Of a stretch of DNA of 26,677 nucleotides, positions 2,106 to 25,969 are shown one piece after another. Within the stretch, counting starts at the first letter, position 1, and the number at the start of each line of letters is the position of its first letter. The stretch lies in the IMG/VR virus record IMGVR_UViG_3300032330_000702, positions 1-26,677 of that record; one strand, 5' to 3'. The position numbers and the translations under genes are program-made. Under the pieces are notes generated by a model. That model did no database searches. It worked only from the letters and a program-made list of their open reading frames with translations, and was not told the DNA's origin. This DNA comes from a virus. Taxonomy: Duplodnaviria > Caudoviricetes.

Positions 2106-4346
2106 TTATTTAGATACTTTTAAATTTCCCCATGCGGACGAATTAATTACAGGTTTACCTAAAGGTGCGATCATTTCACTTTCAAGTCTTGCACGCGCTT
2201 CATTCATAAGTTTATTATATAACGGATAATTAGGAGATTTAGGATTATTAGAATCACCACCTATTTTATCTAGTATTTTTTTCTCTTCTGCGACCATTAA
2301 ATCTGGTATTTTTTCCCTTACTTTTAATCGTTCTTCAATTGTAGGAACACCTTTAGCTGCTGCGGCAATACCAGTTTTATAAATTTCGGCATCTGTTTTA
2401 TATTTAGTCATTTCCCACTCATTTTTGAGTAAGTTATTTTGCATCTTCTCAGCATGAGCAAGAGCTTCTTTATGCTGTTTAGTATCAGCGCCATATTTAG
2501 CATACGTAAGTTTTTCTTGTCGATCTGCTTTTTCAGCATCAGTAATAAGTTGATATCTTTTTTCTTCTAGCTCTGCTAATTTGTCTTGTGTTTTTTGATA
2601 CTGTTCAATGCCTGATTTACCACGCGCTAAGTTAACTGCAGCATATGGAGAAGTGCCACCAAGAATATCAAGCCCCGCTGTGAGCATAGACATGCCTGCA
2701 TTTCTATCTTCCATGTCTTTAGCGCGGGCTTCCATTTTAGCCATACGAGCATCACGAGCTTCTCTAGATTTATCTGGGCCCATATAGTTTTCTAATTCTG
2801 AAGCGTAATCACTAAGTCCTTTAACAGGTTCAACTTTTGATGGAACAAAACTTGGCTCTTTAATACCTGCTTTAACTGATGTATCTTTAACATCTTCAGT
2901 TTTCGCTGCGGTTTCTTCTTCTTTAGTGGGAGCAACTTCAGTAGCTCTTGGTATATAGCTAGGATAGTTAAAGTTCTGTACGTACGCTTTATTTTCTGGT
3001 GTAGGTACATAACCATAAGACTCTGCAAGATTTTGACCGGCTTTAAGTCCTGCGCCAGCAAATTTAGACGCTATTGCAGAAGGTAAATTAGTCATAGTTT
3101 GAATTACGCTACTAAGGTCTTTAGTAAATGATCGGGGTCTGATCGCATCTTTTTTAGCGTAGTCTGCCTGAACAATCGCTTGGTCTTGTGGGGAAAGAGA
3201 ATTATATGTATCTTCATCGATGCCATATACAACACCGCCAGGCGCATAACCTATTGCACCACCTTGTGCAAAGTTGTAAGCACCACGTATGCCTACGCTA
3301 TCAGGTGAAGCTGTTAAACCTAAGCTATTACCTTCTTGGTTAATTCGTTCTAATAATGCTTGACGAGAATCTACATTGTAGCCTGCACCATAACGCGTAC
3401 CGTTGTCTGTAATGTAACTACCACGAATACTTCTTAATCCCATCGTATTATCTGGTCCTGGCGCTACATCTGCGCCTACTGAAGTTCTACCTGATTGACG
3501 ATCAATGCCCAACGCTCTTGCATCTGGAGCATACCTAGCACTATATTGATTACCTTGGTCAGTCATATAACGGCCATAAAGTTCGCCTCTTGGAACAGAA
3601 GTACCTCGATCATTAACCATACCTGCAAATTCAGCACCTACAGAACCGCGTTGATTACCTACATCAGCACCTATGTTATATTGAGCTGCAATAATTTGTT
3701 TTTCTTCATTTGTAAGCGGAGTAAATCGACTACGTGTTTTAAGGTCTACATCGCCGCCATCATCAAACGCTACAACCCCGCCTTGAGCCATTTGATATGT
3801 TTTTGGTTTTTCTACGGGTTTCATCCCCATATAGGTCAATAAATTTTTTGCATTGGGATCAGTTCTAGCAGCTAATACCATTTTATCTAAATCGCCACTT
3901 GGTCCGAATAATTGAGCAAATATATTATTAGGTGCAATAGTATAATCTTGCATGCCACTAGACCTGCCTAGAGAACTAACTCCAGTATTTAGATTAAGTG
4001 TAGGAAGCTCCTCTAGGTTCATGCCTGTATTACCCCCTTCAGCAAACGCTACGATGCCACCAGCTGCATAGTTCTTTTCGTTATACATTGTTTCGGGAAG
4101 AGGTAAATCTGATATACCTTGGGAGGCTTGTTGCGGCGCTGCACTAGCTACAACTTTTTGAGCCACGGTTGGTTGAGCGCCTTGTGGGGGCATAGCTGAA
4201 GTTTTAAGTTCTTCACGACGTTTTAACTCTGCCAATGCCAATACTGAGGGTACTTGGCCATTTGGGTTTTTAACATAGTTAATAAGTTGCTCTGTAGTAA
4301 CAGCAGGGCTTTTTAAGTGAGATTGAATTTGATCTAAGTTAAACAT
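2106..4346 (-). CDS. Probable internal virion / DNA-ejection protein, modular
   Basis: 746 aa, positioned between a gp7-like gene and the large polyvalent gene. Has three tandem pairs of [FYM]xxGG motifs and a C-terminal charged coiled-coil region. Confidence 0.7.
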   Translation of the reverse strand: MFNLDQIQSHLKSPAVTTEQLINYVKNPNGQVPSVLALAELKRREELKTSAMPPQGAQPTVAQKVVASAAPQQASQGISDLPLPETMYNEKNYAAGGIVAFAEGGNTGMNLEELPTLNLNTGVSSLGRSSGMQDYTIAPNNIFAQLFGPSGDLDKMVLAARTDPNAKNLLTYMGMKPVEKPKTYQMAQGGVVAFDDGGDVDLKTRSRFTPLTNEEKQIIAAQYNIGADVGNQRGSVGAEFAGMVNDRGTSVPRGELYGRYMTDQGNQYSARYAPDARALGIDRQSGRTSVGADVAPGPDNTMGLRSIRGSYITDNGTRYGAGYNVDSRQALLERINQEGNSLGLTASPDSVGIRGAYNFAQGGAIGYAPGGVVYGIDEDTYNSLSPQDQAIVQADYAKKDAIRPRSFTKDLSSVIQTMTNLPSAIASKFAGAGLKAGQNLAESYGYVPTPENKAYVQNFNYPSYIPRATEVAPTKEEETAAKTEDVKDTSVKAGIKEPSFVPSKVEPVKGLSDYASELENYMGPDKSREARDARMAKMEARAKDMEDRNAGMSMLTAGLDILGGTSPYAAVNLARGKSGIEQYQKTQDKLAELEEKRYQLITDAEKADRQEKLTYAKYGADTKQHKEALAHAEKMQNNLLKNEWEMTKYKTDAEIYKTGIAAAAKGVPTIEERLKVREKIPDLMVAEEKKILDKIGGDSNNPKSPNYPLYNKLMNEARARLESEMIAPLGKPVINSSAWGNLKVSK

Positions 4347-4354
4347 ATTTTCCC

Positions 4355-5485
4355 CTAAGCTGTTTTACCTAATACGTTATAGAGACCAAGTCCTGCTAGA
4401 CCTAAACCTGCAATCTGCGAAGCGGTACTAGGCGCTGGCGTATATTGAACTTGCGTAGAACCAAGTGCACCTGCGTTACCACGTAGAATATTACTGAGGT
4501 ATTCAAGTTGTGTTTTAGGATAGTTTTGTTGGGTCAAGAAGTTTTGATAAGCAATATCAAGTGCTTTTTGATTTTGTGCTTGTTGTTGAGCACCGGTAGC
4601 TTCTTGAGCTTGTAATCTAGCCAAATCAGTTGTTTGTTGTTGAGCACCAAGTTGACCGAGCGCTTGTGATCCTTGTAATCCAGCTTGTAAACCTGCTGTA
4701 CCAAGTTGACCAAGAAGTTGAGCTTGTTGGCCATATGCCGCTTGATTAAGTTGTTGAGCTTGTAATGCCCTAGCTTGATCTTGATTAAATTGTGTTTGAG
4801 CGTTTGTATACGCATCTTGTAAACCTTTAGCTCTAATATCTGCAATGTTTTGAGCAGCACCACGATTTTGTTCAGCTTGTAATAAAGCTTGGCGTGCGCC
4901 ACCAAATGTACCGCGACTAATAGCTCCTGTCATACCTGCGGTTTTAGCAAGGTCTCTTTGTTTTTCTGCTTCACGAACTGCTTGATCTGTAACAGCAGAA
5001 GCATAAGGTGACATGTAAGCAGCGGCTGCTGGAGCTCCGAATGTGCCAGTACCTACGCTTATCGGAGTATACCCCATAGCGCCTGTCAATCCTGCAAGTC
5101 CTGCACCTAAACCTAATGTAGAGCCAGCGCCTAAACCCGAAGTAGCCGCACCGAATTGACCCGGTGTAGTCATAGCAAGCGTTTCTTTTTGTGTTGCTAT
5201 TTGTTCTGGAGTAAATGCTGCTTGTTGTGAACCTGTATATGGAGTATAAGGTTGAACGCCGGTTACGTTGCCTGCTGCGTCTGTAGAGTATACTTGCTGA
5301 GCAGTCGACTTCATTAACTGTTCATAGTATGGTTTTGCATATTCAGGTAAGTTAGTAGAATATGAAGTAGAAGTTTGAGATCCGCCTCCACCACCAGATG
5401 AACCACCACCACCCATTTTGAGTGTAAAGAAATCCGTTAGGTCTTCTACCCAATTAAATAAGTTTATTAACTTGCTTGATCTCAT
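4355..5485 (-). CDS. Probable DNA-ejection / pilot protein (P22 gp7-like position), Gln/Ala/Gly-rich
   Basis: 376 aa: short leader then KMGGGGSSGGGGG, Q/A-rich coiled coil, GTFGGARQAL motif and a hydrophobic Gly-rich C-terminus. ATGA overlap with the upstream gene; alternative start at 5416. Confidence 0.7.
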   Translation of the reverse strand: MRSSKLINLFNWVEDLTDFFTLKMGGGGSSGGGGGSQTSTSYSTNLPEYAKPYYEQLMKSTAQQVYSTDAAGNVTGVQPYTPYTGSQQAAFTPEQIATQKETLAMTTPGQFGAATSGLGAGSTLGLGAGLAGLTGAMGYTPISVGTGTFGAPAAAAYMSPYASAVTDQAVREAEKQRDLAKTAGMTGAISRGTFGGARQALLQAEQNRGAAQNIADIRAKGLQDAYTNAQTQFNQDQARALQAQQLNQAAYGQQAQLLGQLGTAGLQAGLQGSQALGQLGAQQQTTDLARLQAQEATGAQQQAQNQKALDIAYQNFLTQQNYPKTQLEYLSNILRGNAGALGSTQVQYTPAPSTASQIAGLGLAGLGLYNVLGKTA

Positions 5486-5895
5486 AAAGTTTTCTCCACT
5501 ACGTTCGTAACTTTTTCAAGTCCTAATTTTATTTTAAATAATCTTGCTTGTGCTTCTTGAGCATACGCTCTAATTTTTGTAACGCCATTACCTCTACACC
5601 AATCTTCATATTGCTTAACTGTATGCTCATCAAATAATCCTTTACCGCCCATGCACGTTGTAAATGCAACTTTGTGATTCATTTGATTAATAACTTCTAC
5701 TGTAAAACACCCAATAATTTCATTACTTTCAACCACTACAAACAATAATTGAAACTCTTTTATTAATAGAACTTTAAGTTGTTCTATATCATAATCACCG
5801 TGTTCATAATTAATAAAAGCTACATTCAACATTGGCCATACAGTTTCCCATAAACCAAGTATATGACCGGGTGCAACTAGTTGTACTGATTTCAT
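5482..5895 (-). CDS. GNAT-fold acyltransferase-like virion assembly protein (P22 gp14 / T7 gp13-like position)
   Basis: 137 aa with LFVVVESNEIIGCFTVE beta-strands, a CMGGKGL loop and WCRGNGVTKIRAY...ARLF..LG. Lies directly upstream of an ejection-protein gene. Confidence 0.6.
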   Translation of the reverse strand: MKSVQLVAPGHILGLWETVWPMLNVAFINYEHGDYDIEQLKVLLIKEFQLLFVVVESNEIIGCFTVEVINQMNHKVAFTTCMGGKGLFDEHTVKQYEDWCRGNGVTKIRAYAQEAQARLFKIKLGLEKVTNVVEKTL

Positions 5896-7946
5896 GCAGG
5901 TAAAAATTTATTAGGGTTAATTTGTTTACCCTGTTTCTTTGTTCCTGTTCTAGCGTGTCTTACTTTGTCTAACATTGCATATAATCTTTTTGATCCTGCT
6001 TTAGAAGAGCCATTACCTAAATGACTTACCACATCTGCAGGTACTACAAATTCACCATCTGCCAAACGTGCTGGTTGTTTTCCTTCTATTGTAGCAGGTA
6101 TTGAGTCCGACATGCCATCACCAGCACCATCTAAATAACCACCTTTAGCCATTTGAGTTCCGCCAATATTTCTAAAATAGAGTCCATTACGGTTGTCAGA
6201 CGCAAAGTTAATACCCGCGTTATTAAATAAACCGCCACGATTAGAATCATCTCTTCCGTGATAACCAAAGTTAATGCCAGCATTATTAAAAAAACCGCGG
6301 TGTTTATCATTATTATCTGAACTAGTTGTAATAGCTACTGCAGGAGTATTTGATCCTGTAATTACATTGAGTGTCGGTAAATTTTCTAGATTTAAAGAAG
6401 GTGTCGGGTCTACAGTGCCGCCTTCAGCAAATTGATTTCTTAAAGGCCTTGCACGATCAAGATAATCTCCAAAAGATTTAATTCCCGCTGCGTTAGGCAT
6501 TACTGGTGTATTTAATTTATCTCCGTATTGAGCAAAAAATCTATTATATAAATCTGAATGTTGAATATCAGGAGTATTAGTTCCAGTATTTATATTAAGT
6601 GTAGGAAGATTATCTAAATTTAAAGAAGGGCGAGGATCAACTTCTCCACCATCAGCATAACCTAAAGTTTTAGCTTGTTGCATTTCTTGCGCACTTGCCA
6701 AGTTACTTAGTCTACCAAGTCCAAATCCATCCGCACTTAAAGGCTGTGTTTGATTGTCAGATGAACCATATAAATCACGAATGCCGCCTGATTGAATAGT
6801 TGGTTGGACTATACCCCCTTCCGCATAACCTGTAGTTGCAGGAAGTTTTAATGATGCGCCTAAGTTTAATGGTGAAGGACCACTCAAGTTTAATGTTCTA
6901 TAAGGATTGAATGCTGATTTTGCAATGTATCCAAAAGTAGGTTTACCTGCAGCATCTACACCAGTTTGTTCGTAGACTTTTTCTTCTTGATCAGATAAGT
7001 TAACTTGTGGATTGAGATCAGACTCTTCTACACCACCTAATAATGCCCCACCAATTGGAAGTCCTATTTTTTTAAATACATCCATATTAGTAGCTGGTTT
7101 TACCGGATTGTAAGTAGAACTAATTATATTACCTGTAGCGTCTTTTGTAACTCCAGTAAGTTCCCCACCACTACCTGGAAGAGAGGCTTTATATGCACTT
7201 AATCCATCTTTTGAAAATAGTTTAGAAGTTCCAGCTTTTAATTTATCTAAATATGTAGGAGCAGCTGTTTGGGCAGCGTTTATAACATTTCCAGCATTAG
7301 CTACCGTATTTGCTCCTGTTAATCCTGCATTCATAGCTTGATTAGTTAGGGCGTTACCTGCAGTATTAGCTAAAGCAGATTGACCAACTATCCCTGCGTT
7401 TCCAACAGTTCCAACACCTAGTCCCGCTCCACCTGCAATACCATTAGGAGTAAAAGGACTTATAAACTGATTTGACGCACCTACTAAAGGGGCCCCAGCC
7501 GCAGTTTGAGTAACATTAGAAACCATAGTTGGTGTCACTCCGCCAGGAGTCGTCGCACCTAAATTGGCTAAAGAATTACCAAGTCCAGCACCACTGTATC
7601 CACCTAGAGCACCAGTAATACCGCCCATTAGTGGATTACCGCCAGTTATAGCTGCTGTTGCAGCACCAGCTAAAATACCTGCACCAATACCTTCCATGCC
7701 GCCAAATAGAGATGCACCAAAACCTGGAAACATTACGCCTGCAGCAACAGGAATCAGAGCTTTAAATACTCCACCAAGTTTAAAAGCTTCTGGCATACCT
7801 GTATGAGGGTTAATAGTCAAAGAAGTGCCATGTTGCTTAGCCAACGCTTGCAAACCTTGTACTTCTTCTTGGTTCATGTGGACGATTAAATCATCACCAT
7901 ATCTACCTAGAGAAGCTATGCCTTTGGCTGTGGAATGTGCTGTCAT
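5892..7946 (-). CDS. Probable internal virion / ejection protein with a tape-measure-like C-terminal GG..SDSIPA..GEFVV domain
   Basis: 684 aa: N-terminal GRYGDDLIVHM...TINPHTGMPEAF module, a hydrophobic Gly/Ala-rich segment, five [FYM][AK]xGG motifs, and C-terminal MAKGGYLDGAGDGMSDSIPATIEGKQPARLADGEFVVPADVV. Confidence 0.7.
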   Translation of the reverse strand: MTAHSTAKGIASLGRYGDDLIVHMNQEEVQGLQALAKQHGTSLTINPHTGMPEAFKLGGVFKALIPVAAGVMFPGFGASLFGGMEGIGAGILAGAATAAITGGNPLMGGITGALGGYSGAGLGNSLANLGATTPGGVTPTMVSNVTQTAAGAPLVGASNQFISPFTPNGIAGGAGLGVGTVGNAGIVGQSALANTAGNALTNQAMNAGLTGANTVANAGNVINAAQTAAPTYLDKLKAGTSKLFSKDGLSAYKASLPGSGGELTGVTKDATGNIISSTYNPVKPATNMDVFKKIGLPIGGALLGGVEESDLNPQVNLSDQEEKVYEQTGVDAAGKPTFGYIAKSAFNPYRTLNLSGPSPLNLGASLKLPATTGYAEGGIVQPTIQSGGIRDLYGSSDNQTQPLSADGFGLGRLSNLASAQEMQQAKTLGYADGGEVDPRPSLNLDNLPTLNINTGTNTPDIQHSDLYNRFFAQYGDKLNTPVMPNAAGIKSFGDYLDRARPLRNQFAEGGTVDPTPSLNLENLPTLNVITGSNTPAVAITTSSDNNDKHRGFFNNAGINFGYHGRDDSNRGGLFNNAGINFASDNRNGLYFRNIGGTQMAKGGYLDGAGDGMSDSIPATIEGKQPARLADGEFVVPADVVSHLGNGSSKAGSKRLYAMLDKVRHARTGTKKQGKQINPNKFLPA
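6204..6293 (-). repeat. Short duplicated peptide FNNAGINF
   Basis: GFFNNAGINF and GLFNNAGINF occur 21 aa apart in the 684-aa protein. Confidence 0.8.
6342..6659 (-). repeat. Two copies of a ~30-aa module ([FY]A[DE]GGxVDPxPSLNLxNLPTLNxxTGxNTP) at ~6570-6659 and ~6342-6431
   Basis: YADGGEVDPRPSLNLDNLPTLNINTGTNTP versus FAEGGTVDPTPSLNLENLPTLNVITGSNTP. Confidence 0.85.
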
Positions 7947-8349: not shown

Positions 8350-10290
8350 TTAGCTTCTTAGTCCATCAGGCCTTGCATCAACACGAGGCATACCAAGTTG
8401 CCATTGGGTACCTACATCATTAGAACTAATTTTAAAATTCATTTGACGTCCACGCGCTCTGATAAATACTTGATTTGTATACTGATCTATTGTAGCTGTC
8501 GAAGTTACAATATCTTGTGCTGTAGTTTGACCTTCAGAATTTGTAGTCGACGATGCGGCACCTGGGAAATTACGAACTCCTACAGTCATAGTTACTTGAG
8601 GAACAATCGTAGCTCCCGTCACAGGATTAGTAGTTTCTGATTCATTAAAGTTAACATCAGGAATAATACGGCGTATAAGCATATATTTATCGCCGTCTTC
8701 AATATCTATGTCTGCTGATTGTATATAAGCCGGAATAGGTAATGGCGCAGCCCCCGCTGGTTGTCCATCGTTGTTTCCATATTCATGTAAATAAACATAT
8801 CCATCTTTAGCTGCAACCGGATAATCAATTACACCTGTATCAATCCACGCGGTTCTTTCTAAATTGCCAAAGTACCAAATATTTTCAGCATAATTATAAA
8901 TAACATATCGATCAATTTCATCAGAAGCCGCGGTGCAATAGAACCAAATGACTTCATTAAACTCGGCATTTTGCCCAGCAAAAAATAAAGCTTGCTGTGA
9001 TCTATTAATATTAGTAAATACGTATTGACGGAGCGTACAAGGTAAGGTATCTACGCGACCTGAGTAAGTATAGAATTTATCGTTACCCATCCAGTAGACT
9101 ACATTATTAGCACCGATTACAGTGTTAGCGCCAAATATAGTTGTAGCTGAAGAAACTTCTTGTAAACCAAATACTTCTGACGTACCTAAGAATTGTAATG
9201 AAGACAAAGATACATCAGTCCAAACAAGAATTTCTTGTTTAGTTCTTAATGCTGTTACAATTCTAGATCCTACAGAAAGTCTTAAAAATCCGGCTGTATT
9301 AGTTAAAGTAGGCTGCCAGTTAAGCGGATCAGGGCCAATATCGGGGTCTACATTTGCCCAACGAATAAGTAATGGATCATAAGTTCCTAAGTAATTAGGT
9401 CCTGATGCGGTAGCATCATAGTTAGTACATGCAAAAGCTAATAAGTGTCCACTAGGGGCAAATAAAATTTTACCTACTTGTTGTGGTACAGCAATTGCAC
9501 CTGAGATTGAAGATAATAATACAGCACGGGTATTAAAAGCGCTTGTATATTCCCAATAATAAATGTAGCTATTTTGTACATTAAAAACTAAATCATTATT
9601 AAATTTATCTTGGAATATTAATCGTGCTGGATAATATGTAGGTGTAGTAGACCCAGAACCCCAAGTTCCTCGACTCCAAACACTTGTACCCCAACCGTAT
9701 CCTGCAGTGGTTGTATTGTACCCTACATTAATTTGAAATGCTGCAGTAATAGCTGTACCGCCTTGGCTTGATGTAGTACTTGTAGCAGCGGTAGTTACAG
9801 TAAATGTAAAAGTATTAGAATTTACATATGTTATTTGTTGTTCTGCATTAAACTCAGAAGCAGGTATTCCTGCAATAGGTCCTGTCACACCACTAAAAGT
9901 TACAAAATCTCCTGTAAGGCCCCCATAACCTGCAATAGTAACTGTAATAACTTTGGATCCATTTGTAGTACTTATACAATTATTTGTATCAGGGGATGTA
10001 AATGTAGTTCGTATAGGAGTTATATCATATATACTAGTGCCTACACCTACATACATTTTAGTATTAGTGCCAATACCTAACAAGATATTGCTATCTGTAG
10101 TACTCCAAGAAAAAAGACTTCGAGCTGAGCCATTATATGCAGTTAGATTTTTAGGCTGCCATCCACCCATTTTTTCTGGGAAACCTGAACGGAATCTTAC
10201 CCATTGAATATCATACCAACCGCCTTCTGAAGCGTAATTAGTTTGATCTCGGTTAACTCCTGGTTTAAATATTAGTTTACTTAATGGCAT
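8350..10290 (-). CDS. Tail hub / packaged-DNA stabilisation protein (P22 gp10-like, beta-rich)
   Basis: 646 aa, beta-strand-rich: MPLSKLIFKPGVNR start, LLIRWAN..., EVIWFY, RARGRQMNFKI...WQLG.PRVD..PDG end, plus a Thr-rich inserted domain at ~aa 100-185. Confidence 0.7.
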   Translation of the reverse strand: MPLSKLIFKPGVNRDQTNYASEGGWYDIQWVRFRSGFPEKMGGWQPKNLTAYNGSARSLFSWSTTDSNILLGIGTNTKMYVGVGTSIYDITPIRTTFTSPDTNNCISTTNGSKVITVTIAGYGGLTGDFVTFSGVTGPIAGIPASEFNAEQQITYVNSNTFTFTVTTAATSTTSSQGGTAITAAFQINVGYNTTTAGYGWGTSVWSRGTWGSGSTTPTYYPARLIFQDKFNNDLVFNVQNSYIYYWEYTSAFNTRAVLLSSISGAIAVPQQVGKILFAPSGHLLAFACTNYDATASGPNYLGTYDPLLIRWANVDPDIGPDPLNWQPTLTNTAGFLRLSVGSRIVTALRTKQEILVWTDVSLSSLQFLGTSEVFGLQEVSSATTIFGANTVIGANNVVYWMGNDKFYTYSGRVDTLPCTLRQYVFTNINRSQQALFFAGQNAEFNEVIWFYCTAASDEIDRYVIYNYAENIWYFGNLERTAWIDTGVIDYPVAAKDGYVYLHEYGNNDGQPAGAAPLPIPAYIQSADIDIEDGDKYMLIRRIIPDVNFNESETTNPVTGATIVPQVTMTVGVRNFPGAASSTTNSEGQTTAQDIVTSTATIDQYTNQVFIRARGRQMNFKISSNDVGTQWQLGMPRVDARPDGLRS

Positions 10291-11850: not shown

Positions 11851-12246
11851 TTAGTTATTCAATGGATTAACCATTGCCTTTCTTAATTGTTTCATTTCGT
11901 CTTTTACATTAGTTACAGTATCTACAACTTTATCTGCAGTGCCTTTAGCCACACTGTTAGCTTCAATTGCTTTACCGTAAGCTTCATTTGCTTTTTCTAA
12001 TGCACGGTTATTAGACATCATCACATCGACTAACTGACGTTCTACTGATTTAGACCTATCTTCAAGCACGGTGATTCTTGTTTCAACTGTGCTCATTTTT
12101 TTTACTTCCTCAATCGTCGAGGTCAAATCGTTGAAGAGGGTTATCCCGTAATATACTGCGCCACCTATTGGCACTAGCACTGATAAGATAATCCCCAGTA
12201 TCATTTGCGCTGATAAATTCAAGGAGTATGTTTTGTTGTCTTCCAT
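11851..12246 (-). CDS. Membrane-anchored coiled-coil protein
   Basis: One N-terminal TM segment (MILGIILSVLVPIGGAVYYGI), then a heptad pattern ending in NPL. AGGAAG RBS. Overlaps the upstream gene by 137 bp. Confidence 0.7.
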   Translation of the reverse strand: MEDNKTYSLNLSAQMILGIILSVLVPIGGAVYYGITLFNDLTSTIEEVKKMSTVETRITVLEDRSKSVERQLVDVMMSNNRALEKANEAYGKAIEANSVAKGTADKVVDTVTNVKDEMKQLRKAMVNPLNN

Positions 12247-13138
12247 AATCTTCTTCCTGTATTAATTTAATTGATTCTTCTATTTGTGATTGCTGCAGGT
12301 TGTAGCCTGAGTTTAAAAGCTGCATCGACATAACGATGCCAAATCCTGGTACTAAATCTTTACCCTTAGGGGTTTCTGGTGCTTTCTCTATACCCGACAT
12401 CGTCGTAGTACTTGTAACGGGGCTTGGTGCAGACGTCGTTCCAACTACCTCGCTTTTTATAGGTGTTACTGCCAAAGTAGTGTCCAGATTCCCCATCGGT
12501 AGCGCACTTAGATCCTGCACAGTTACAGATTCTGTTTGGGGTACTGGCGCAGTTGTGATTTGTTGACTTATCACACTGTTCGGATTTGTTGGACTGATTG
12601 GACTTATTGGACTCACCGGGTTGTTGATATTCGTCGCCGTCATCGTGCAAGTATCTGACATTGTTGACCAAGCAATCCAAGTTGGCGAACCATATGGATC
12701 CGAGCATATCGAGGTTCTTGACTCTGTTATTAATCCAGTGTAACCAGCTTGGCATGTTACTTGCCTCGTTTCAGTAGAGCTAACACACGTTGGAGGATCT
12801 GGTGTGCAATTGTTAGAAGTTGTTGTCCAAGCTGTCCAACTTTGTGTAGTACAAGTATAAGACCTGCTTTGATTGATGGCACCTGTAAAATGCAAAGGGC
12901 AACCAAGCGTTTGATATTCTGTTTGGTTTGAACAAGCAGGTTGGTAATAATAGCCACATATAGGGTCGCCTGGGTGGTAAGGACACCAGGCTTGAGATAA
13001 CGCGCTTTGATTGTCGATACCATAGCAGACAAGGTTTGTAACGTAGCCTGTACCTTGTTGCGGAACGTAGTTACAATACCAAGCATATGCATTACTCCCT
13101 AGTAGGAGGCAAAGAAGGAATGTTATAATCTTCGCCAT
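12110..13138 (-). CDS. Exported Cys-rich protein with two ~45-50-aa Cys/Trp repeats and a Pro/Thr linker
   Basis: Signal peptide ending AYA. Repeats C..xTE.xxxxC...xTG.IxxSR..xC...W.AW.TxSxxC, followed by SPISPISP and a Thr-rich linker. Confidence 0.75.
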   Translation of the reverse strand: MAKIITFLLCLLLGSNAYAWYCNYVPQQGTGYVTNLVCYGIDNQSALSQAWCPYHPGDPICGYYYQPACSNQTEYQTLGCPLHFTGAINQSRSYTCTTQSWTAWTTTSNNCTPDPPTCVSSTETRQVTCQAGYTGLITESRTSICSDPYGSPTWIAWSTMSDTCTMTATNINNPVSPISPISPTNPNSVISQQITTAPVPQTESVTVQDLSALPMGNLDTTLAVTPIKSEVVGTTSAPSPVTSTTTMSGIEKAPETPKGKDLVPGFGIVMSMQLLNSGYNLQQSQIEESIKLIQEEDYGRQQNILLEFISANDTGDYLISASANRWRSILRDNPLQRFDLDD

Positions 13139-14097: not shown

Positions 14098-14110
14098 TAA
14101 ATTTACTCTA

Positions 14111-14704: not shown

Positions 14705-15424
14705 TTAACTAAATCCAAAAGGGCATTTTTTATAAGATCTTCTTTTTGTATATTTCCCCAAAAATGTAGTTTCTGTATAACTTAAAAATTTATCCAAATA
14801 TTCTTTGTCTGAAATTAAATGTTTTTTTAGAACAATTTTTTTCTCCGACATAGGAATTAAATGCATCATCGGTTGTTTAAACGGTATCATAATATTTTGA
14901 TTTGTTTGTTCAAACAATAATTGCATATGAGTTGAATGTTGGTCATTAAAATTCAATGTTCCAGGAGTAAAGACGATATCTTTAATATTATCATTATTCC
15001 AAAATGGATCTATTGCTACAAAATTAATATTTTCTTTTGTTCGTAATTTCCAAGGCGATTCTACTTTTAAATTAATATAATTCATATAAAAATTAACTCT
15101 TTGATTAGAGATATGATGGCTTACTTTTGATAACTTATCTGAAAATTTATAATGATATTCACCATTTTCAATTATTTTTATAGCCAAATCACTCCATAAT
15201 GGAATAATTAATCCATTTTTATAATGATCTATTAAACCTGTACAGGTTTTCATAGTTGCTTCACGAGCCATTTTATCAAAATTAAATTTAGTATATTCTA
15301 AATCTTTCCACCATTTTGGATAAAATTTATATGCATATTCTATTGGTGCTTCATTATATGCATGAGAAAAGTTTTCAGAACAAAATGCATCAACTACTAA
15401 TTCTTTTCTTTTTATAAAAAACAT
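14705..15424 (-). CDS. Hypothetical protein (possibly dUTPase-like beta fold)
   Basis: 239 aa with P.WWK...TMKTC.G..D....G.IIPLWSD...LK..SPW...PG...P..HLIP and C-terminal CPF. Fold is a guess. Confidence 0.6.
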   Translation of the reverse strand: MFFIKRKELVVDAFCSENFSHAYNEAPIEYAYKFYPKWWKDLEYTKFNFDKMAREATMKTCTGLIDHYKNGLIIPLWSDLAIKIIENGEYHYKFSDKLSKVSHHISNQRVNFYMNYINLKVESPWKLRTKENINFVAIDPFWNNDNIKDIVFTPGTLNFNDQHSTHMQLLFEQTNQNIMIPFKQPMMHLIPMSEKKIVLKKHLISDKEYLDKFLSYTETTFLGKYTKRRSYKKCPFGFS

Positions 15425-15437
15425 ACATCTCTCTTAT

Positions 15438-15677
15438 TTAATTATTTATAATGATGCTTGATGTTTCCTTATCTATTGTCATAAATCCTTCACATGCAAT
15501 ATTCCAATCATCGCTTCCATTTCCATCACTAGAAACCTCATCCTGCATGGGGACATTTATTTTTATATGTTTACAAAGATATTCATTGCCATTTTCAAAT
15601 ACACGCCAAACATGGTCTATTGTTCCACGATTTGGTTGCCCTCTACTTTTGTTAAATCTTATTAAATATTTATTCAT
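15438..15677 (-). CDS. Hypothetical protein
   Basis: 79 aa, TAATG-coupled to the upstream gene; IRFNKSRGQPNRGT.DHVWRVFE...WNIAC.G. Confidence 0.7.
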   Translation of the reverse strand: MNKYLIRFNKSRGQPNRGTIDHVWRVFENGNEYLCKHIKINVPMQDEVSSDGNGSDDWNIACEGFMTIDKETSSIIINN

Positions 15678-15970
15678 TAATTACACATTATGCCATCTTT
15701 AATAGTAAAAATATTACAAAAAACTGTATTATCTTCTAAAGCTTCAATTTCGTGCCATTCACCTGCAAGCAAATTAAAAGCACCTGATTCTTTTGTAGCA
15801 ATAACTTCTTTATTTGCTTTTCTAATAACAATAGAACCATTATGACATATGGTTATATGTGAGTTTGCATGCGAATGTTGTGATAGCCCCTCGCCTTTAT
15901 TTACATGATATACATTATTTACTGTTTGTTCAGAACTAAAAATATGTGCAGGGGGCACATTAATAATCAT
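15677..15970 (-). CDS. Cupin-domain protein
   Basis: GEGLSQHSH...HITIC..G and AGEWHEIEALEDNTVF, matching both cupin motifs. Confidence 0.8.
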   Translation of the reverse strand: MIINVPPAHIFSSEQTVNNVYHVNKGEGLSQHSHANSHITICHNGSIVIRKANKEVIATKESGAFNLLAGEWHEIEALEDNTVFCNIFTIKDGIMCN

Positions 15971-16311
15971 TATATGATAGTAGTTCCATTAGTTACAGGT
16001 TGGTTTCCATTAACATTTCTTGGAGGATTAGTTACTTTAATATGTGAATAGTCTACCTGAGCGGTTAATACAGCCCTTTCTTTTTCAAATGTAGCATTTT
16101 CTTCTTGATATGTTATTTGTTCAAGAGGCGCATTTGAAATAATAAAATCATCTAAAGCTTGACCTGAAGGCACTGCATTATTTTCAATTGGTAAATCTAA
16201 TTTATATATGATACCCTGTGTAAAGATAGGCGTTTTATATGAAACACTAATTCTTCCTATATCTTTTTCTAAATAAACTATATCATAAGTTATGTCTTCT
16301 TTTTTTGCCAT
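15970..16311 (-). CDS. Hypothetical protein, possible tail-fibre assembly chaperone
   Basis: 113 aa immediately downstream of the Gly-rich fibre-tip gene. Function inferred from position only. Confidence 0.5.
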   Translation of the reverse strand: MAKKEDITYDIVYLEKDIGRISVSYKTPIFTQGIIYKLDLPIENNAVPSGQALDDFIISNAPLEQITYQEENATFEKERAVLTAQVDYSHIKVTNPPRNVNGNQPVTNGTTII

Positions 16312-19837: not shown

Positions 19838-21265
19838 TTAAATCTCCTTAATGTCGGCGTATGAAGCGCCTGTTTCTAAAATATGACGGAGTAACCCACC
19901 ATAAATGTTTAATTCTATTTCATCCCCTAGCATACGAATTAAATCAATAAATTCTTGTGCCTGAGAAATCATCCACGGATTGCAGCTGAATATTTTCCCG
20001 CCCACGTTTACGGGTATGATCGGCTGTCCATCATTTTCTTGTTGCTCATATGCATGGTGAACTTCTTTTTCATCTAAACAAGAATCACATCCAAAGAGAT
20101 GAAACCGTTTAAATCCTAACATTCTAAATAATGGTATAGCTCTTAAAAGAACCGTTGATCCTCCTGGAACTGGATACCATGTTTTATAATGTTTAGCTAA
20201 TACGTCATTAAGCAAATCAGCGCTCGTATGCCATATATAAGTTCTGTCTTTTGGGAGCCCGTCAAACGTAGTAGGATCGCATTGAGAAGCAATAAAATAC
20301 TTACAGTGATCCACTATCGGCTGAGTAAATCTTGCATTGAAAGGTCTAGCATCTACCATAACCATAGCAGAAGGCGTAATACCGTTATCAAGACACCATT
20401 TATAAGCCCCATTAATTGTGATTAGTTTAACACCATCAGCCCTCTTTTGTCTAATGGTTTCAAGGTGTTCGTGCAATGATGGCCCACCACCCACAATCAT
20501 AACTTCTTGATCATTCGTAGGGTGCGGTTGAATCTGCATAAAATCCCTTTGAATGTTGTATTCTACGTTAGCTTTGATGGTCTCGTCGTCAGTATTAATT
20601 ACACCTCTTTCAACGACGTCTTCACCTTTCATCCAAGCACTTACATAGAATAAGCAATACCCATTAGCTTCTTTAGACCAATGAATAATACAGTCTCGAT
20701 CAATAAACTTCTTTAGCCACCACTCATATGGATGTACGCTTAAATGAAGCTTATGCCCTACCACTTTACCCATTTGGTCATCTTCAGTAGCAATCTGAAA
20801 GAAAACATGCTGACAAGCAGCTAAACAATTATCTAATACTTTATCTACATGATGAGGTCTAATATGCTCCATCACATCCGTACAAAATCCATAAGCTGCT
20901 TTAACAGGTAGTGGGTCAGATAAGTCCGCTTCTACAAACCTTAGTGCATGCTTCTGTGTTTCTAACATCGGTCGAATATCTTCGTCTAAACAATTATCTG
21001 CGAAGTCAACCATAGTGACATTTAAGCCACCGAAAAAAGCTAAATTAAGAGAGCCACGTCCTGTGCCACATCCTAAGTCTAGTACTGACGCCCCTTTAGG
21101 AGGCCTAGCTTGATTCAAAAATTCTTGTGCAATGAGTTCACCAGGAGCTACTGCTCTATACTCTGGTATGTCCCACATCATCTTATATAAATCTTTTTCT
21201 AACGGTCTTACATTACTTACTTTAACTTGCGGTGCTTCTGAAAATACAGAAGAAACTGGTATCAT
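19838..21265 (-). CDS. Fusion of a class I SAM-dependent methyltransferase and a DUF115/MptE-like (Maf-related) domain
   Basis: N-half has VLDLGCGTG, VDF and CTDVMEHI. C-half has IVGGGPSL, ITINGA, MVDA, ASQC, GGSTV and LGFKRFHLFGCDS. Confidence 0.8.
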   Translation of the reverse strand: MIPVSSVFSEAPQVKVSNVRPLEKDLYKMMWDIPEYRAVAPGELIAQEFLNQARPPKGASVLDLGCGTGRGSLNLAFFGGLNVTMVDFADNCLDEDIRPMLETQKHALRFVEADLSDPLPVKAAYGFCTDVMEHIRPHHVDKVLDNCLAACQHVFFQIATEDDQMGKVVGHKLHLSVHPYEWWLKKFIDRDCIIHWSKEANGYCLFYVSAWMKGEDVVERGVINTDDETIKANVEYNIQRDFMQIQPHPTNDQEVMIVGGGPSLHEHLETIRQKRADGVKLITINGAYKWCLDNGITPSAMVMVDARPFNARFTQPIVDHCKYFIASQCDPTTFDGLPKDRTYIWHTSADLLNDVLAKHYKTWYPVPGGSTVLLRAIPLFRMLGFKRFHLFGCDSCLDEKEVHHAYEQQENDGQPIIPVNVGGKIFSCNPWMISQAQEFIDLIRMLGDEIELNIYGGLLRHILETGASYADIKEI

Positions 21266-22371: not shown

Positions 22372-22722
22372 TTACGCCATTGGGCCTCTTGTTTTAATAC
22401 CTTTAGTAGCCGCACCATAGCCACGCATAGTTTTTTCACCATTTCTATTGATTACTTTAGATCCAGGGTCTCCTGCGCTTACACGTTGTCTACCTGTTTT
22501 AAAATTAAGTTCTTGTGATTTTAACTTATTAGGATCTTGAGATAATTCAATGTCTAAGCTGTTTGGGTTAGGCATCGGTTGTTTATAAATATTAAGATCA
22601 TCGCCAGTACCACCTGATGGATATTTAAATCCAGTGTATTCACTAGCGTCTTTGTTTTCTTTTGCATGACCTAGCGGATATGAATCTGCTGGTGTTGGTT
22701 TCGGAAAGTCGTTTTTAGCCAT
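22372..22722 (-). CDS. Small basic-tailed hypothetical protein
   Basis: 116 aa ending in TMRGYGAATKGIKTRGPMA. Confidence 0.7.
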   Translation of the reverse strand: MAKNDFPKPTPADSYPLGHAKENKDASEYTGFKYPSGGTGDDLNIYKQPMPNPNSLDIELSQDPNKLKSQELNFKTGRQRVSAGDPGSKVINRNGEKTMRGYGAATKGIKTRGPMA

Positions 22723-22727: not shown

Positions 22728-22922
22728 TTATCCTTTTTTCTGTGCTGCAACTTTAGCCATGCCACGACCCATAGTTTTCATGTCGATGTTCTTTTTACCA
22801 CCTTTAGAACCTGCATGTTTTGGACCTGTTTCAATAGCTACGTTAGGGCCTGTATCGCCTAAATTTTTACCTTTGGTTTTACCTTGTTTAGTAATACCGT
22901 CTGCGCCTGATTTATATGCCAT
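22728..22922 (-). CDS. Small basic hypothetical protein
   Basis: 64 aa with a strong AAGGAG RBS and N-terminal ADGITKQGKTKG. Confidence 0.75.
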   Translation of the reverse strand: MAYKSGADGITKQGKTKGKNLGDTGPNVAIETGPKHAGSKGGKKNIDMKTMGRGMAKVAAQKKG

Positions 22923-23365: not shown

Positions 23366-24316
23366 TTAGCCCCTAAAAAACTGTTCACGTGGCACCCATC
23401 TTATAGGCGCTTTTTCACGATCCTCATCAGCTGCTAATTGGAATGCTGCTTCATAATCAGCTCTTAACATTTGAATTCTATCAGGTGACACATTAGGTAA
23501 TTTCATACTTAAATATGCTGCTAACCCTGCGACCATGCATGGAATAAATCTAAACGGAATGTCTTCAACTGTCAACCCATTACCTGCATCTTGAATACGT
23601 CTTAATCTATAATATACAAATTGATAAAAATTACTTTGTTCAGGAGCAGGCCATACATTAACTGTAGGTAAGTTCTGTACAAATACTCTAGTAGCGGTTG
23701 CATGAGCCGCAGCGGTTGTATTATTTACACCGCGTATACATCCAGTTAATTGGTAGTATGTTGTAGATCCACTTGTTGTCGTTGTTAATCCGCCATATTG
23801 AATAGTTTCATTATCTAATTTAATGAAACCAAACTGCGCTAAGCCTACAATAGAAGTTAAGTTAATTGTAGTTGCTGTGGCACTAACAGATCCGTCAGTA
23901 TATAAATCAGTAGGGTTTTCTTGACCACTTTGTCTATTAATCCATACTTGAATAGGTCGACCTGTTGCATTTTTGTTAGGTATTGTAATATAGGTTGACT
24001 CGCTGATACGGTTAATATTAATGTCTTGCTGGTTCTGACCTGTGCCAGTCCTAGTTACCATGTCAAGTAAGTCAATCGTATCTGTAGGTAACGCATACAT
24101 AATTTGACCTTGGTTTAATTCAATTTGACCAGGTTCAACTGTCCACATATTAATACCACGGTTAGCCCACTCAATTGTAAGTAGGTTTAAAGAACGACGT
24201 GCAGTACGTAAATCATATCCAGTACGTAGCTCTTGACCACAACGTTCAAACGCATCTTCAACAAGGTTGTTTAAATCTAAGTTAAAACTCGTGGTGCCTG
24301 TGGTTCTATCTACCAT
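23366..24316 (-). CDS. Head-tail adaptor-like protein with an inserted Thr-rich beta domain
   Basis: AFERCG...ARRSLNLL..EWANRG.N.W, LP.D, GRP, VWP.P and P.RF..C..AGLA motifs. Insertion TTINL...IKLDNETIQY...RGVNNTTAAAH. Confidence 0.7.
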   Translation of the reverse strand: MVDRTTGTTSFNLDLNNLVEDAFERCGQELRTGYDLRTARRSLNLLTIEWANRGINMWTVEPGQIELNQGQIMYALPTDTIDLLDMVTRTGTGQNQQDININRISESTYITIPNKNATGRPIQVWINRQSGQENPTDLYTDGSVSATATTINLTSIVGLAQFGFIKLDNETIQYGGLTTTTSGSTTYYQLTGCIRGVNNTTAAAHATATRVFVQNLPTVNVWPAPEQSNFYQFVYYRLRRIQDAGNGLTVEDIPFRFIPCMVAGLAAYLSMKLPNVSPDRIQMLRADYEAAFQLAADEDREKAPIRWVPREQFFRG

Positions 24317-24576
24317 TATTTTTTCCCTTTAGGAAATCCTGCTTTCATATTTGCATAAGCTTTTGGTGTGATTGTAGACTTTGATTTAGGACGTGAAATA
24401 CCTTTTTTCTTACGGGCATTTATATTTGCATATAAGCCTACAGGTCCACCTTCTTTAAACTGAGTAAAGTCTGTGTTGTCACGACGTGCTTTTACTTTAC
24501 CTTTAGGCATAGTATTCTCAGTAGCACTAGGAATCTTAGTCTTTTTAATAGCGCCCATACCACGTGAAGGTCTCAT
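24316..24576 (-). CDS. Small basic hypothetical protein
   Basis: 86 aa, TAATG-coupled at both ends; MRPSRGMGAI...FKEGG..GLYANINA. Confidence 0.75.
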   Translation of the reverse strand: MRPSRGMGAIKKTKIPSATENTMPKGKVKARRDNTDFTQFKEGGPVGLYANINARKKKGISRPKSKSTITPKAYANMKAGFPKGKK

Positions 24577-24752
24577 TATTTTTTCAAGCCTTTTAAAGTT
24601 TGTGCTAAACGCGCACGTTGACCCATTTTGCCTGGAGCCTTAGCAGCTTTAGCTAATTTACCTGCTGGAATCTTTTCACCTTTTTTAACGCCAAGAGAAG
24701 ACTTTAATGCACCGGGTTTTTTAATTGCTTTTTGAATCCACTTTTCTGCCAT
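24576..24752 (-). CDS. Small basic hypothetical protein (58 aa, absent from the ORF track)
   Basis: Manual translation: MAEKWIQKAIKKPGALKSSLGVKKGEKIPAGKLAKAAKAPGKMGQRARLAQTLKGLKK. It fills the gap and has a TAATG overlap downstream. Confidence 0.8.
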   Translation of the reverse strand: MAEKWIQKAIKKPGALKSSLGVKKGEKIPAGKLAKAAKAPGKMGQRARLAQTLKGLKK

Positions 24753-24754
24753 GA

Positions 24755-25030
24755 TTAAACAATCCTTCCTTTAGTTTTACCTTTAGTGCAGCATCCATCT
24801 GCACGAGCTGAAGCAGATGAAACTGAACCGCCTTTAGCCATTTTCTTTTCAGACTCAATTTTTTTAGCCGCTCTCATTTCAGCATAACCTTGTTCTAAAC
24901 CACGTCTAGCACTTTCGTGTGGATTACCAAGAGCAGCATCTAAAGCTTTATTAATAGGTCCCATAACTGGGCCTTCTTTACCTCTTTTAAGTCCTTGACC
25001 GTAACCTTCTAAATAATCTTCTTTAGCCAT
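24755..25030 (-). CDS. Small basic hypothetical protein with a GG motif and C-terminal tag
   Basis: 91 aa ending in MAKGGSVSSASARADGCCTKGKTKGRIV. Confidence 0.75.
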   Translation of the reverse strand: MAKEDYLEGYGQGLKRGKEGPVMGPINKALDAALGNPHESARRGLEQGYAEMRAAKKIESEKKMAKGGSVSSASARADGCCTKGKTKGRIV

Positions 25031-25032
25031 AA

Positions 25033-25479
25033 TTAAATAATCCTTCCTCTTGACTTACCTCTAACTGCGCAGCCATTAGCTTTAGCTAGTTGAGATGTTT
25101 TGCCACCTGAAGCCATCTTTTTAACTTTACCGCCTTTTTTAAAGCCCATTGAGCGTCTAGCTTTTTCTTGTAAATCCATTTCTGGAACAACTGCAACTGC
25201 TCTATTAATTACACCCATGTCTGGACCTATTGCTTCTGGATTACCTTCACGGTTAACATTACCATATTCGCCTTCTTTCATTGGAACTGGCATGCGTCTA
25301 GGTGCAATTACTTTACCCATGTTTGGGCCCCTAGAAGTCATTTCACTGAAATCAACTCTTGAAGCTCTTCTTGGCACATCAAAGTTAGGGGCAATTTTAT
25401 CGTCTTTAGAAATACGTTTTGACATATCCTCTTCTTTAGGGCCGCCGATTCTTTTACCGAAAATTTTTAATACTGGCAT
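25033..25479 (-). CDS. Basic hypothetical protein with GG motifs and C-terminal tag
   Basis: 148 aa with AAGGAG RBS, ending in FKKGGKVKKMASGGKTSQLAKANGCAVRGKSRGRII. Confidence 0.75.
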   Translation of the reverse strand: MPVLKIFGKRIGGPKEEDMSKRISKDDKIAPNFDVPRRASRVDFSEMTSRGPNMGKVIAPRRMPVPMKEGEYGNVNREGNPEAIGPDMGVINRAVAVVPEMDLQEKARRSMGFKKGGKVKKMASGGKTSQLAKANGCAVRGKSRGRII

Positions 25480-25553
25480 AGTGATCTCCTTAAATAATCG
25501 TGCCTTTTGATTTACCTTTTTTAGCGATACCGTTAGCTTTAGCTAGTTGAGAT
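25076..25553. repeat. Exact 21-bp direct repeat TTAGCTTTAGCTAGTTGAGAT (25076-25096, 25533-25553) within similar 3' ends of adjacent genes
   Basis: Read directly; encodes SQLAKAN in both genes. Confidence 0.85.
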
Positions 25554-25969
25554 ACTTTACCTCCAGAAGCGTAACCGCAACCTTTAGCCATGCCACCTTT
25601 TTTAAGTTTTAATGAAGTACCTTTACCGCCTTTATGTTCTTGAGCATCGTGTTGTTTAAATGCTTTTTTGATCATAGCTTTGTCTTGTGCCATGTCCATT
25701 TTTGTATCTTCTTTCATGTCTGATTTAGCCATACCGCCTTTTTTCATGTAGCCCATTTTATTTCTAACCTCCGTTGGTAATTTTGATAATCCAGGATTTT
25801 CACTAGAATCAACTGCTTTAAGTGCGCCTCCTGCTCCGAATTTCTTGCCCTTGTCTGCTTTATTAAATTCCTTTGCCACTGACATAGGAACGCCTACTTT
25901 TTTAGCAAACGCAGGGTTGTGAGCTGCGGCCGCCATTAAATTTCTTTGTGCTTTTGATTTACTTGGCAT
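25490..25969 (-). CDS. Basic hypothetical protein with several GG motifs and C-terminal tag
   Basis: 159 aa starting MPSKSKAQRNLMAAAAHNPAFAKKVGVP; contains FGAGG, MKKGG, LKKGG and YASGG; ends in ANGIAKKGKSKGTII. Confidence 0.8.
   Translation of the reverse strand: MPSKSKAQRNLMAAAAHNPAFAKKVGVPMSVAKEFNKADKGKKFGAGGALKAVDSSENPGLSKLPTEVRNKMGYMKKGGMAKSDMKEDTKMDMAQDKAMIKKAFKQHDAQEHKGGKGTSLKLKKGGMAKGCGYASGGKVSQLAKANGIAKKGKSKGTII

Follow-up and report, generated by a model that had tools for sequence, protein, structure and literature searches.

What does a short Gly-Gly motif do when it recurs across otherwise unlike proteins of one phage? The DNA analyzed here (the window, i.e., the whole stretch of 26,677 nucleotides) carries the pattern [FYM][AK]xGG in six genes whose products are presumed to be internal to the capsid, and the original prediction held that these proteins are precursors either cut at, or recruited through, the motif. 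The features concerned are as follows.

2..2104, minus strand: giant polyvalent ejection protein, 5′ part (ART-PolyVal domain; no motif)
2106..4346, minus strand: 746-aa presumed ejection protein, with motif pairs at aa 93/101, 186/194 and 359/367
3234..3272, minus strand: tandem FAQGG / YAPGG, aa 359 and 367
3753..3791, minus strand: tandem MAQGG / FDDGG, aa 186 and 194
3789..4043, minus strand: module aa 102-186 of the 746-aa protein, defined by BLAST
4032..4070, minus strand: tandem YAAGG / FAEGG, aa 93 and 101
5892..7946, minus strand: 684-aa presumed first ejection protein
5895..6152, minus strand: MAKGG (aa 599) and 85-aa C-terminal Gly-Glu module of the 684-aa protein
6417..6431, minus strand: FAEGG, aa 506 of the 684-aa protein
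6645..6659, minus strand: YADGG, aa 430 of the 684-aa protein
6813..6827, minus strand: YAEGG, aa 374 of the 684-aa protein
7770..7784, minus strand: FKLGG, aa 55 of the 684-aa protein (pattern match, unconserved)
8350..10290, minus strand: tail nozzle/stabilization gene (no motif), our anchor for finding related loci
24316..24576, minus strand: 86-aa basic protein, FKEGG (40; 24445-24459)
24755..25030, minus strand: 91-aa protein, MAKGG (64; 24827-24841), followed by a basic C-terminal module of 27 aa
25033..25479, minus strand: 148-aa protein, FKKGG (113) and MASGG (122), together at 25102-25143
25490..25969, minus strand: 159-aa basic protein, FGAGG (44), MKKGG (75), LKKGG (122) and YASGG (133)

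The motif is enriched and constrained at the protein level

All 16 strict copies and the three variants (FDDGG, FGAGG and LKKGG) that the original prediction had listed are present, as are the three tandem pairs set 8 aa apart in the 746-aa protein, and the other 32 of the window's 38 genes contain no strict copy, as had been judged by eye for the tail, lysis and oxygenase genes. The motif is enriched over shuffled background, since residue shuffles within each protein (n = 5000) gave a mean of 1.35 and a maximum of 7 strict copies. The codons of the copies do differ, with all four Gly codons used, so that the constraint acts on the protein; a DNA-level signal is thereby ruled out, as is a chance pattern from Gly-rich sequence, the Gly-richest genes having no strict copy. 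Because the pattern had been picked after seeing the data, we repeated the test without this bias on 1914 unique GG contexts from 80 related loci, where the preceding pairs Y-A (70 vs. 6.8 expected), F-A (36 vs. 6.8) and M-A (22 vs. 4.4) were enriched. Runs of G-G, the pair E-K and a few weaker pairs also stood out, the E-K excess being probably the conserved EKMGG of the nozzle protein.

The motif is real, and 15 of the 16 strict copies look genuine. FKLGG at aa 55 of the 684-aa protein was ruled out as a conserved copy by its homologs: at this site, anchored in 108 of 120 homologs, the commonest sequences are FSFGD, FSLGG, FKLGG, FNLGG and FNLGN. The full unit has eight residues, [GS]-[YFM]-A-x-G-G-x-[VLI], with Ala in 310 and Lys in 10 of the 320 unique contexts of strict copies and mostly V, L or I at position +6. 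The 8-aa spacing of tandem copies equals this unit length and occurs 43 times in the 120 homologs, the second copy often carrying Asp or Glu in place of Ala. Our literature search, with most subscription papers outside it, found no published description of the motif or of a module that cuts at it.

Distribution in related phages

The nozzle protein best matches those of DSL-LC04 (35%), CRP-902/901, MinM2 and HTVC027P/023P, and a complete relative (G001) has the gene order GroES, scaffold-like gene, Mu-gpT-like capsid; on the evidence of nozzle similarity and matching gene order, the phage groups with the HTVC023P/CRP-901/DSL-LC04-like podophages. The motif is family-wide in HTVC023P/DSL-LC04-like podophages, where 49 of 53 copies lie in ejection, cargo or small basic genes, in agreement with the claimed restriction to presumed capsid-internal proteins. 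It is also kept in homologs, for example at aa 70-135 in 25 of 27 orthologs of the 746-aa protein, and in the orthologs of the 86-aa basic protein in G001-G004. One DSL-LC04 cargo gene has three copies within its first 60 aa, and HTVC023P gp83 has one copy 12 aa from its C-terminus. The DSL-LC04 portal was considered as a motif carrier and ruled out, since the copies sit in a gene between terminase and portal. The giant ejection protein, presumably packaged, has 0-1 copies.

Motifs mark the joints between exchangeable modules

The 684-aa protein consists of a conserved leader, a Gly/Ala-rich segment, variable modules bounded by motifs and a conserved C-terminal module, and its 120 homologs show 42 distinct module orders. 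Of 27,453 internal alignments between them, 49.7% start at a motif (11.1% at random), a figure inflated by the motif itself scoring in the alignments; the earlier observation that motifs lie at segment boundaries is thus borne out. This exchange extends between genes. The 746-aa protein has no Pfam or PHROG match and is presumed to be an ejection protein from its location, flanked by the DNA-ejection gene and the gene of the giant protein. All 38 BLAST hits for its aa 102-186 are in proteins with the Gly-Glu module, and the best 12 of the 38 all begin at a motif Ala; it seems that the 746-aa gene took up this segment from the 684-aa gene family, with a motif as the joint. The motif marks joints between exchangeable modules, with exchange even between genes.

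The six proteins had been described as otherwise dissimilar, and this needs correction in two places, the 746-aa protein sharing a module with the 684-aa family and three of the small proteins sharing a homologous basic C-terminal module of 26-27 aa. This module follows MAKGG in the 91-aa protein and, with 26 aa each, MASGG in the 148-aa protein and YASGG in the 159-aa protein, whose N-terminus matches PHROG virion structural proteins.

A Gly-Glu module accompanies the motif

The last motif copy of the 684-aa protein, MAKGG, opens an 85-aa module with an invariant G631-E632 and a near-invariant Asp614, and the profile of this Gly-Glu module matches 13,766 protein clusters at 50% identity. By significant profile similarity over the motif and the Gly-Glu core, it is homologous to C-terminal repeats of the tape measures of JBD30 (E=1e-3), Douge (E=6e-12) and lambda. 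The link to lambda gpH made in the original prediction is upheld, in that the profile grown from the window's module, run against 1108 ORFs, matches the gpH repeat at E=4.8e-7, with the second-best hit at 2.1, a transitive link in which one lambda-like prophage sequence (L134) is included in the profile. Some homologs of the module have no adjacent motif (L127, L128).

Module and motif also occur together. Among the loci with a Gly-Glu module, many of them near-duplicates, motifs are present in other downstream ejection genes in 47 of 49 (77 copies vs. 7.8 shuffled, 6 of the 77 being YNDGG in an unrelated small gene). None of the five loci lacking the module (0 of 5) has a motif in another ejection gene, and these five are a single clade, so that the co-loss amounts to about one event plus two distant phages; CRP-901, DB2 and phiM5 have neither the module nor a motif excess. 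In HTVC103P, a motif-rich gene ending in the Gly-Glu module lies between the portal gene and the gene preceding the capsid gene, i.e., in the usual protease slot. The Gly-Glu module is likely the candidate reader of the motif.

AlphaFold2 modelled the module twice, with pLDDT 59 and 73; the better model (pTM 0.47) has a hairpin and helices, with a low-confidence first third and no recognizable enzyme fold. Foldseek against the PDB gave no match and VIA-align wide gave best Z of 2.9 and 2.6, i.e., nothing, results which exclude no fold; Foldseek against BFVD gave significant E-values only for uncharacterized or unnamed phage proteins. A homodimer prediction gave no answer (score 0.23, mark 0.42) and is evidence neither way.

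The likely cut lies before the alanine

Mass spectrometry placed the cut in T5 pb2 after R1127 (PMC10038345). The residues around this bond, R|AEGGMM, have the form X-A-x-G-G-x-hydrophobic and include one of just two AxGG strings in the protein's 1219 aa; R-A-x-G-G-x-V was found in 10 proteobacterial relatives (picked by pattern, 18 loci). The crAss001 cargo protein gp45 has 8 AxGG strings in 842 aa, and its portal-bound density covers residues 425-552 (PMC10172136). A425, the first residue of this density, is the Ala of N|AFGGWL, and the density stops before the next motif (A560), the chance of a start on a motif Ala being about 1%. The density edge could simply be a domain edge, and the authors describe gp45 as one chain spanning the portal (PMC10172136). 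In lambda, gpH loses about 14 kDa at a site and by a catalyst given as unknown in a 2025 article (PMC12617516). FATGG at 733 of gpH opens the repeat homologous to the window's module, and a cut there would release about 12.6 kDa, which is less than the reported loss.

The profile link between the short T5 repeat (GExGxE type) and the Gly-Glu module is non-significant (hhalign probability 0.3%, no HMM cross-hits, with short and shallow profiles), as is that to crAss C1 (PF25725; gp45 425-552), with hhalign at 0.4-1.5% and no Pfam hit, so the T5 and crAss001 points are drawn from the motif alone. In the ESM Atlas, crAss_CARG1 is the nearest family to the module at only 0.83-0.84, which we treat as a lead; searching 301 genomes from a single phylum with the crAss C1 profile gave 1 weak match and no bridging sequences.

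Taken together, these sites suggest that the register is likely X|A-x-G-G, not after Gly-Gly. Cleavage at a Gly-Gly motif had been proposed by analogy with adenovirus and ASFV; cutting at the motif stays under consideration, and an adenovirus/ASFV-style cut at Gly-Gly is probably wrong, since the T5 cut and the crAss001 edge precede Ala and no adenain-like protease was found in the complete relative. A Pfam scan of 31 window proteins and 25 of the 86 G001 proteins detected no Ulp1-like cysteine protease, a remote homolog being possible; no standard head protease was found in G001, whose genes between portal and capsid have no Pfam protease match.

What the motif may do

The reading that we prefer, and to which our comparative analysis gives roughly even chances, is that the motif is a maturation cleavage site at module joints, cut before Ala and read by the Gly-Glu module. 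During head maturation the precursors would be cut at each motif into ejection modules of 6-42 kDa, spacers of 8-11 aa and basic peptides of 26-47 aa, most of them predicted to carry A-x-G-G or K-x-G-G at the N-terminus; the basic peptides would bind packaged DNA and the ejection modules would leave separately. More tentatively, the Gly-Glu module, probably an oligomer on the portal, may free itself by cutting and may cut or hold the other sites via Glu632 and Asp614. A bolder version, which we think rather unlikely, is that AxGG followed by the Gly-Glu module would be an undescribed self-cleaving peptidase common to the tape measures of siphophages, the cargo of crAss phages and the ejection proteins of podophages. 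It would be the catalyst so far missing for the cleavage of lambda gpH and T5 pb2, and in this phage group it would act in trans as the maturation enzyme, so that several genes would encode polyproteins, made up of exchangeable injected modules and protamine-like peptides.

A serious rival, in our judgment fairly improbable, is an uncut packaging or docking tag, an 8-residue β-hairpin that would bind portal, scaffold or Gly-Glu module and recruit cargo into the procapsid, with tandem or clustered copies adding avidity. The near-terminal copies in the DSL-LC04 cargo gene and HTVC023P gp83, the repeat spacing of one unit length, the crAss001 domain that opens with the motif and binds the portal, and the limitation to presumed internal proteins all fit a tag; but the same string is cut in T5, in a tail where capsid targeting is unneeded, the giant ejection protein, which is presumably packaged, is nearly motif-free, and copies stand at almost every module joint and not once per chain.

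It is unlikely that the cut before Ala is made by another enzyme (an MPTase-type zincin with HExxH in the giant polyvalent protein, an unrecognized head gene or a host protease), with the Gly-Glu module only an anchor. Metalloproteases do commonly show prime-side specificity, and HExxH is present in orthologs of the giant protein in G001-G005 and MinM2. A role for MPTases in processing polyvalent proteins inside the head has been proposed (PMC5512222), and a title cited in PMC12617516 points to a part played by the host in cleaving T5 tail protein. Against this, the motif occurs without HExxH in the ejection genes checked of DSL-LC04, HTVC023P, GB2A and (in part) HTVC103P, which rules out a zincin as universal partner, and by annotation and gene order the remaining conserved head genes are also present in motif-less CRP-901. 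That the motif would be only a flexible hinge and recombination joint with no reader, a Gly-Gly turn spread by duplication and gene conversion, is very unlikely: Gly-Gly is a common turn and modules do exchange at the motif, between genes too, but the Ala is near-invariant, +6 is usually V/L/I despite variable codons, the motif is carried also by short basic proteins in which a hinge would have nothing to join, and the ejection genes of the CRP-901 clade lack it.

The cut site and mechanism of lambda gpH have been open since 1974 and were still so in 2025, according to PMC12617516. Cleavage before Ala names testable bonds (lambda F733|A734 and Y778|A779; JBD30 F1019|A1020; crAss001 N424|A425 and its sister sites) and a candidate catalytic residue. 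Phages of SAR11 and of fresh water belong to the phage group studied here. Should cutting prove real, many "hypothetical" ejection genes would be polyproteins to be annotated module by module; if the motif is instead a tag, it would be a portable capsid-loading signal.

Comparison with known processing systems

In T4 (gp21) and in phiKZ and SPN3US (phiKZ gp175), a prohead protease processes internal proteins at a repeated short motif. As here, one short motif runs across many head-internal proteins and propeptides; unlike here, those motifs close with a Glu on the non-prime side of the cut, a residue absent before the likely cut in our motif logos, and they need a dedicated serine protease gene. 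Adenain and ASFV S273R are Ulp1-like cysteine proteases that cut at or after glycines, and they share with this phage a Gly-Gly motif in core and basic proteins and, as predicted here, the release of small basic peptides, whereas the cut here would likely fall three residues before the glycines.

Lambda gpH, processed to gpH* and gpHC, carries FATGG and YATGG and is processed near the motif region, but it is a tail ruler, unlike the head cargo here. The tape measures JBD30 gp46 and Douge gp16 (PDB 8RK3, 8ZDO) have the same module and an upstream AxGG, but the maps do not show the module. For JBD30 the authors guess that the cut is at R1066, whereas our reading predicts the bond named above. 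T5 pb2, which yields pb2* and pb2C (Linares et al. 2023, PMC10038345), likewise has a short Gly/Glu-containing repeat downstream of its cut, near the C-terminus, and differs in having one site, in a siphophage tail, which the accessible part of that article does not describe as a motif. The crAss001 protein gp45 (Bayfield et al. 2023, PMC10172136) is treated by its authors as uncut, "cleav" occurring 0 times in the main text, and the Ala can be preceded by F, Y, K, A, S or H, a wider choice than here; likewise, it is the first cargo gene after the nozzle gene and has a basic C-terminal tail after its last motif.

Gene content of the window

All genes of the window lie on the minus strand and make up the structural half of a podophage. 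The nearest relatives of the nozzle protein are found in DSL-LC04, CRP-901/902, MinM2 and HTVC023P/027P. In reading direction, small basic genes are followed by adaptors, tail fibres, oxygenase-like and lysis genes and the nozzle gene, and then by the genes encoding the 684-aa, 137-aa, 376-aa and 746-aa proteins and a truncated giant protein. The 376-aa protein matches a PHROG DNA ejection protein, and gene position together with PHROG matches suggests that the 684-aa, 746-aa and small basic proteins are capsid-internal. Features of this region are as follows.

22728-22922 (-): 64-aa protein whose N-terminal stretch resembles the basic C-terminal peptide of the motif-carrying small proteins; no motif
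22372-22722 (-): 116-aa protein ending in a looser version of that peptide
19838-21265 (-): methyltransferase and MptE-like domain fusion amid the tail genes, possibly a tail-modifying enzyme; the complete relative G001 has one too
13570-16311 (-): low-GC stretch (25-28% at 14-16 kb) of small genes, oxygenase/cupin-like by eye, flanked by tail fibre and lysis genes; G001 has a different gene content here
12110-13559 (-): 342-aa and 155-aa Cys/Thr-rich proteins with signal-peptide-like N-termini, ahead of a holin-like gene; missing from the corresponding place in G001
5892-7946 (-): 684-aa protein, presumed first ejection protein
5482-5895 (-): 137-aa gene separating the two first ejection genes, where CRP-901 has its GNAT-annotated gene; no match in Pfam and PHROG searches
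2106-4346 (-): 746-aa protein
2-2104 (-): giant protein, truncated by the window edge; ART-PolyVal domain (E=1e-27)

Enrichment and conservation of the motif

All 16 strict copies of [FYM]-[AK]-x-G-G listed in the original prediction are present, confined to 6 of the 38 genes; shuffling gave 1.35 copies on average and at most 7 (5000 shuffles), so that the proposed enrichment is borne out. One copy, FKLGG, is poorly preserved among homologs and was rejected as a conserved motif. An unbiased count of residue pairs preceding Gly-Gly in 80 related loci showed Y-A, F-A and M-A to be among the leading pairs and gave the extended unit [GS]-[YFM]-A-x-G-G-x-[VLI]. The 684-aa protein and its homologs, 120 sequences including the window's own, contain 437 copies vs 27 shuffled, with approximately one copy per protein present by construction because the C-terminal module served as the search query, and a spacing of 8 residues between motifs occurs 43 times. 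The motif is also conserved in five IMG/VR relatives and DSL-LC04 (11, 9, 11, 9, 5 and 8 copies vs 1.3-2.3 shuffled), with 49 of these 53 copies located in two ejection genes, the small basic genes and one extra cargo gene. Little or no excess is seen in HTVC023P (3 vs 1.6, counted from 10.9 kb onward), which mostly uses the form F-N-x-G-G, or in CRP-901 (2 vs 1.6, counted up to the last 3 kb). DSL-LC04 also encodes, between terminase and portal, an 825-aa 'PcfJ-like' protein (L403:10344-12821) with three motifs within its first 60 residues, possibly an extra cargo that has gained the signal.

Motifs at module joints

The motif is a protein-level signal at the module joints of one gene class, in agreement with the earlier claim that copies often lie at segment boundaries. 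Across the 120 homologs, 49.7% of 27,453 internal BLAST alignment starts fall from -12 to +3 of the motif Ala vs 11.1% for random positions, an effect that is overstated because the motif itself promotes alignment starts there. Splitting these homologs at motifs yielded 503 segments, which fall into 31 clusters and are arranged in 42 different orders. For residues 102-186 of the 746-aa protein, all 38 matches are 684-aa family proteins, the best 12 of them starting exactly at the motif Ala, and the signature of this module is absent from all 27 orthologs of the 746-aa gene; these two observations together argue for transfer of the module between the 684-aa family and the 746-aa gene at a motif joint. 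In addition, one conserved basic peptide ends three small proteins, beginning at the last motif of each, and in 7 of 8 such proteins of relatives the motif lies 9-12 residues ahead of the peptide core.

The Gly-Glu module

The last motif of the 684-aa protein (MAKGG, aa 599) opens an 85-residue C-terminal module, here called the Gly-Glu module, which shows 87-96% identity among close homologs, the remainder of the protein being variable; Gly631-Glu632 is invariant in 100 aligned sequences. The module profile matches 13,766 clusters as well as the Douge and JBD30 tape measures. Among prophage proteins it has matches in 19 genomes of one phylum and in 5 of a second, out of 301 genomes for each (both counts including the centre genome). 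When enlarged by distant prophage members, it matches the lambda tape measure gpH (E=4.8e-7 among 1108 ORFs); profile comparisons did not reach T5 pb2 or crAss001 gp45. The predicted structure is a hairpin plus helices, for which fold comparison gave no match. In the JBD30 paper the module is modelled as a hook, no peptidase motif is found and R1066 is offered as a guess for the cut site (PMC11445458); the 80alpha paper describes a fragmented ruler with no site given (bioRxiv 2024.12.10.627806). In two loci (L030:7507-7887 and L037:4739-5104) the module is split into a tandem of degenerate halves that complement each other: the motif and the helix, with Gly in place of the Glu, remain in one half, and the Asp loop and Gly-Glu in the other. 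This arrangement hints at the module working as an oligomer.

The distribution of the signal is tied to this one module, which is also located near where the lambda ruler is processed. For the 54 of 175 nozzle-anchored loci with at least 7 kb downstream, motifs occur in other genes in 47 of 49 loci with the module vs 0 of 5 without it, all five being CRP-901-like. Neither module nor motif excess was found in Octadecabacter DB2 (whole record) or phiM5 (30 of 44 kb), and GB2A has the module with a single motif elsewhere among the ejection genes, which does not exceed the shuffled level. In HTVC103P, gp79 (L408:26674-27969) is a motif-rich acidic protein with the module at its end, encoded between the portal gene and a scaffold-like gene, the usual head-protease slot.

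Probable cut register and candidate mechanisms

The original prediction likened the motif to adenain-type processing, in which cuts fall at the glycines. A processing site at the motif is still likely; the Gly-Gly register is probably wrong, since the boundaries in T5 and crAss001 precede Ala. The T5 tape measure pb2 is cut after R1127, located by mass spectrometry (Linares et al., PMC10038345), in the sequence P-R|A-E-G-G-M-M. The nearest named family in the ESM Atlas was crAss cargo protein 1, which we take as a lead; crAss001 gp45 (cargo protein C1) has eight AxGG strings, a pattern that is kept in 20 representatives drawn from 80 loci. Portal-bound gp45 density covers residues 425-552, beginning on the Ala of an AxGG string, and another modelled piece (214-245) falls between two motifs with its start not on a motif; the structure report reads the chain as continuous, cleavage not being discussed (PMC10172136). 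With both boundaries before Ala, the conserved residues would form the new N-terminus.

We consider it probable that the sites are cut before Ala during maturation, taking all enzyme options together, and give an even chance to the Gly-Glu module itself making this cut or acting as its binding reader. Cutting by a different enzyme is unlikely. No Pfam head protease was found in G001 (25 of 86 proteins scanned), the early genes of which include SprT-like and DUF2201 metallopeptidase genes; HExxH occurs in the giant protein of G001-G005 and MinM2, consistent with MPTases belonging to polyvalent proteins (PMC5512222), and is absent from the checked, motif-carrying ejection genes of DSL-LC04, HTVC023P and GB2A. 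The window's giant protein (2-2104, -) ends at the window edge where its relatives suggest an HExxH zincin, which by analogy may lie beyond it. In G001, an ATPase-like gene (L089:16436-18769) adjoins the early DUF2201 metallopeptidase-VWA gene, GroES is encoded within the head module, and the giant protein carries LPD38.

An uncut tag is a less likely, though serious, alternative to cutting before Ala, and the two ideas are compatible in part, as a freed A-x-G-G end could itself dock. That the motif is a mere hinge between modules is very improbable.

Comparison with known systems

The signal is conserved and apparently undescribed, literature searches having found no published description, and is most likely a maturation cut site. 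It differs from adenain-type processing in its probable register before Ala, and represents a variation on head and tail processing that is already known. New here are the crAss001 density edge on a motif Ala, the finding that the podophage module is homologous to lambda gpH, the joint loss of module and motif in the CRP-901 clade, and the transfer of a module from one gene to another. An old question in lambda is now directly testable.
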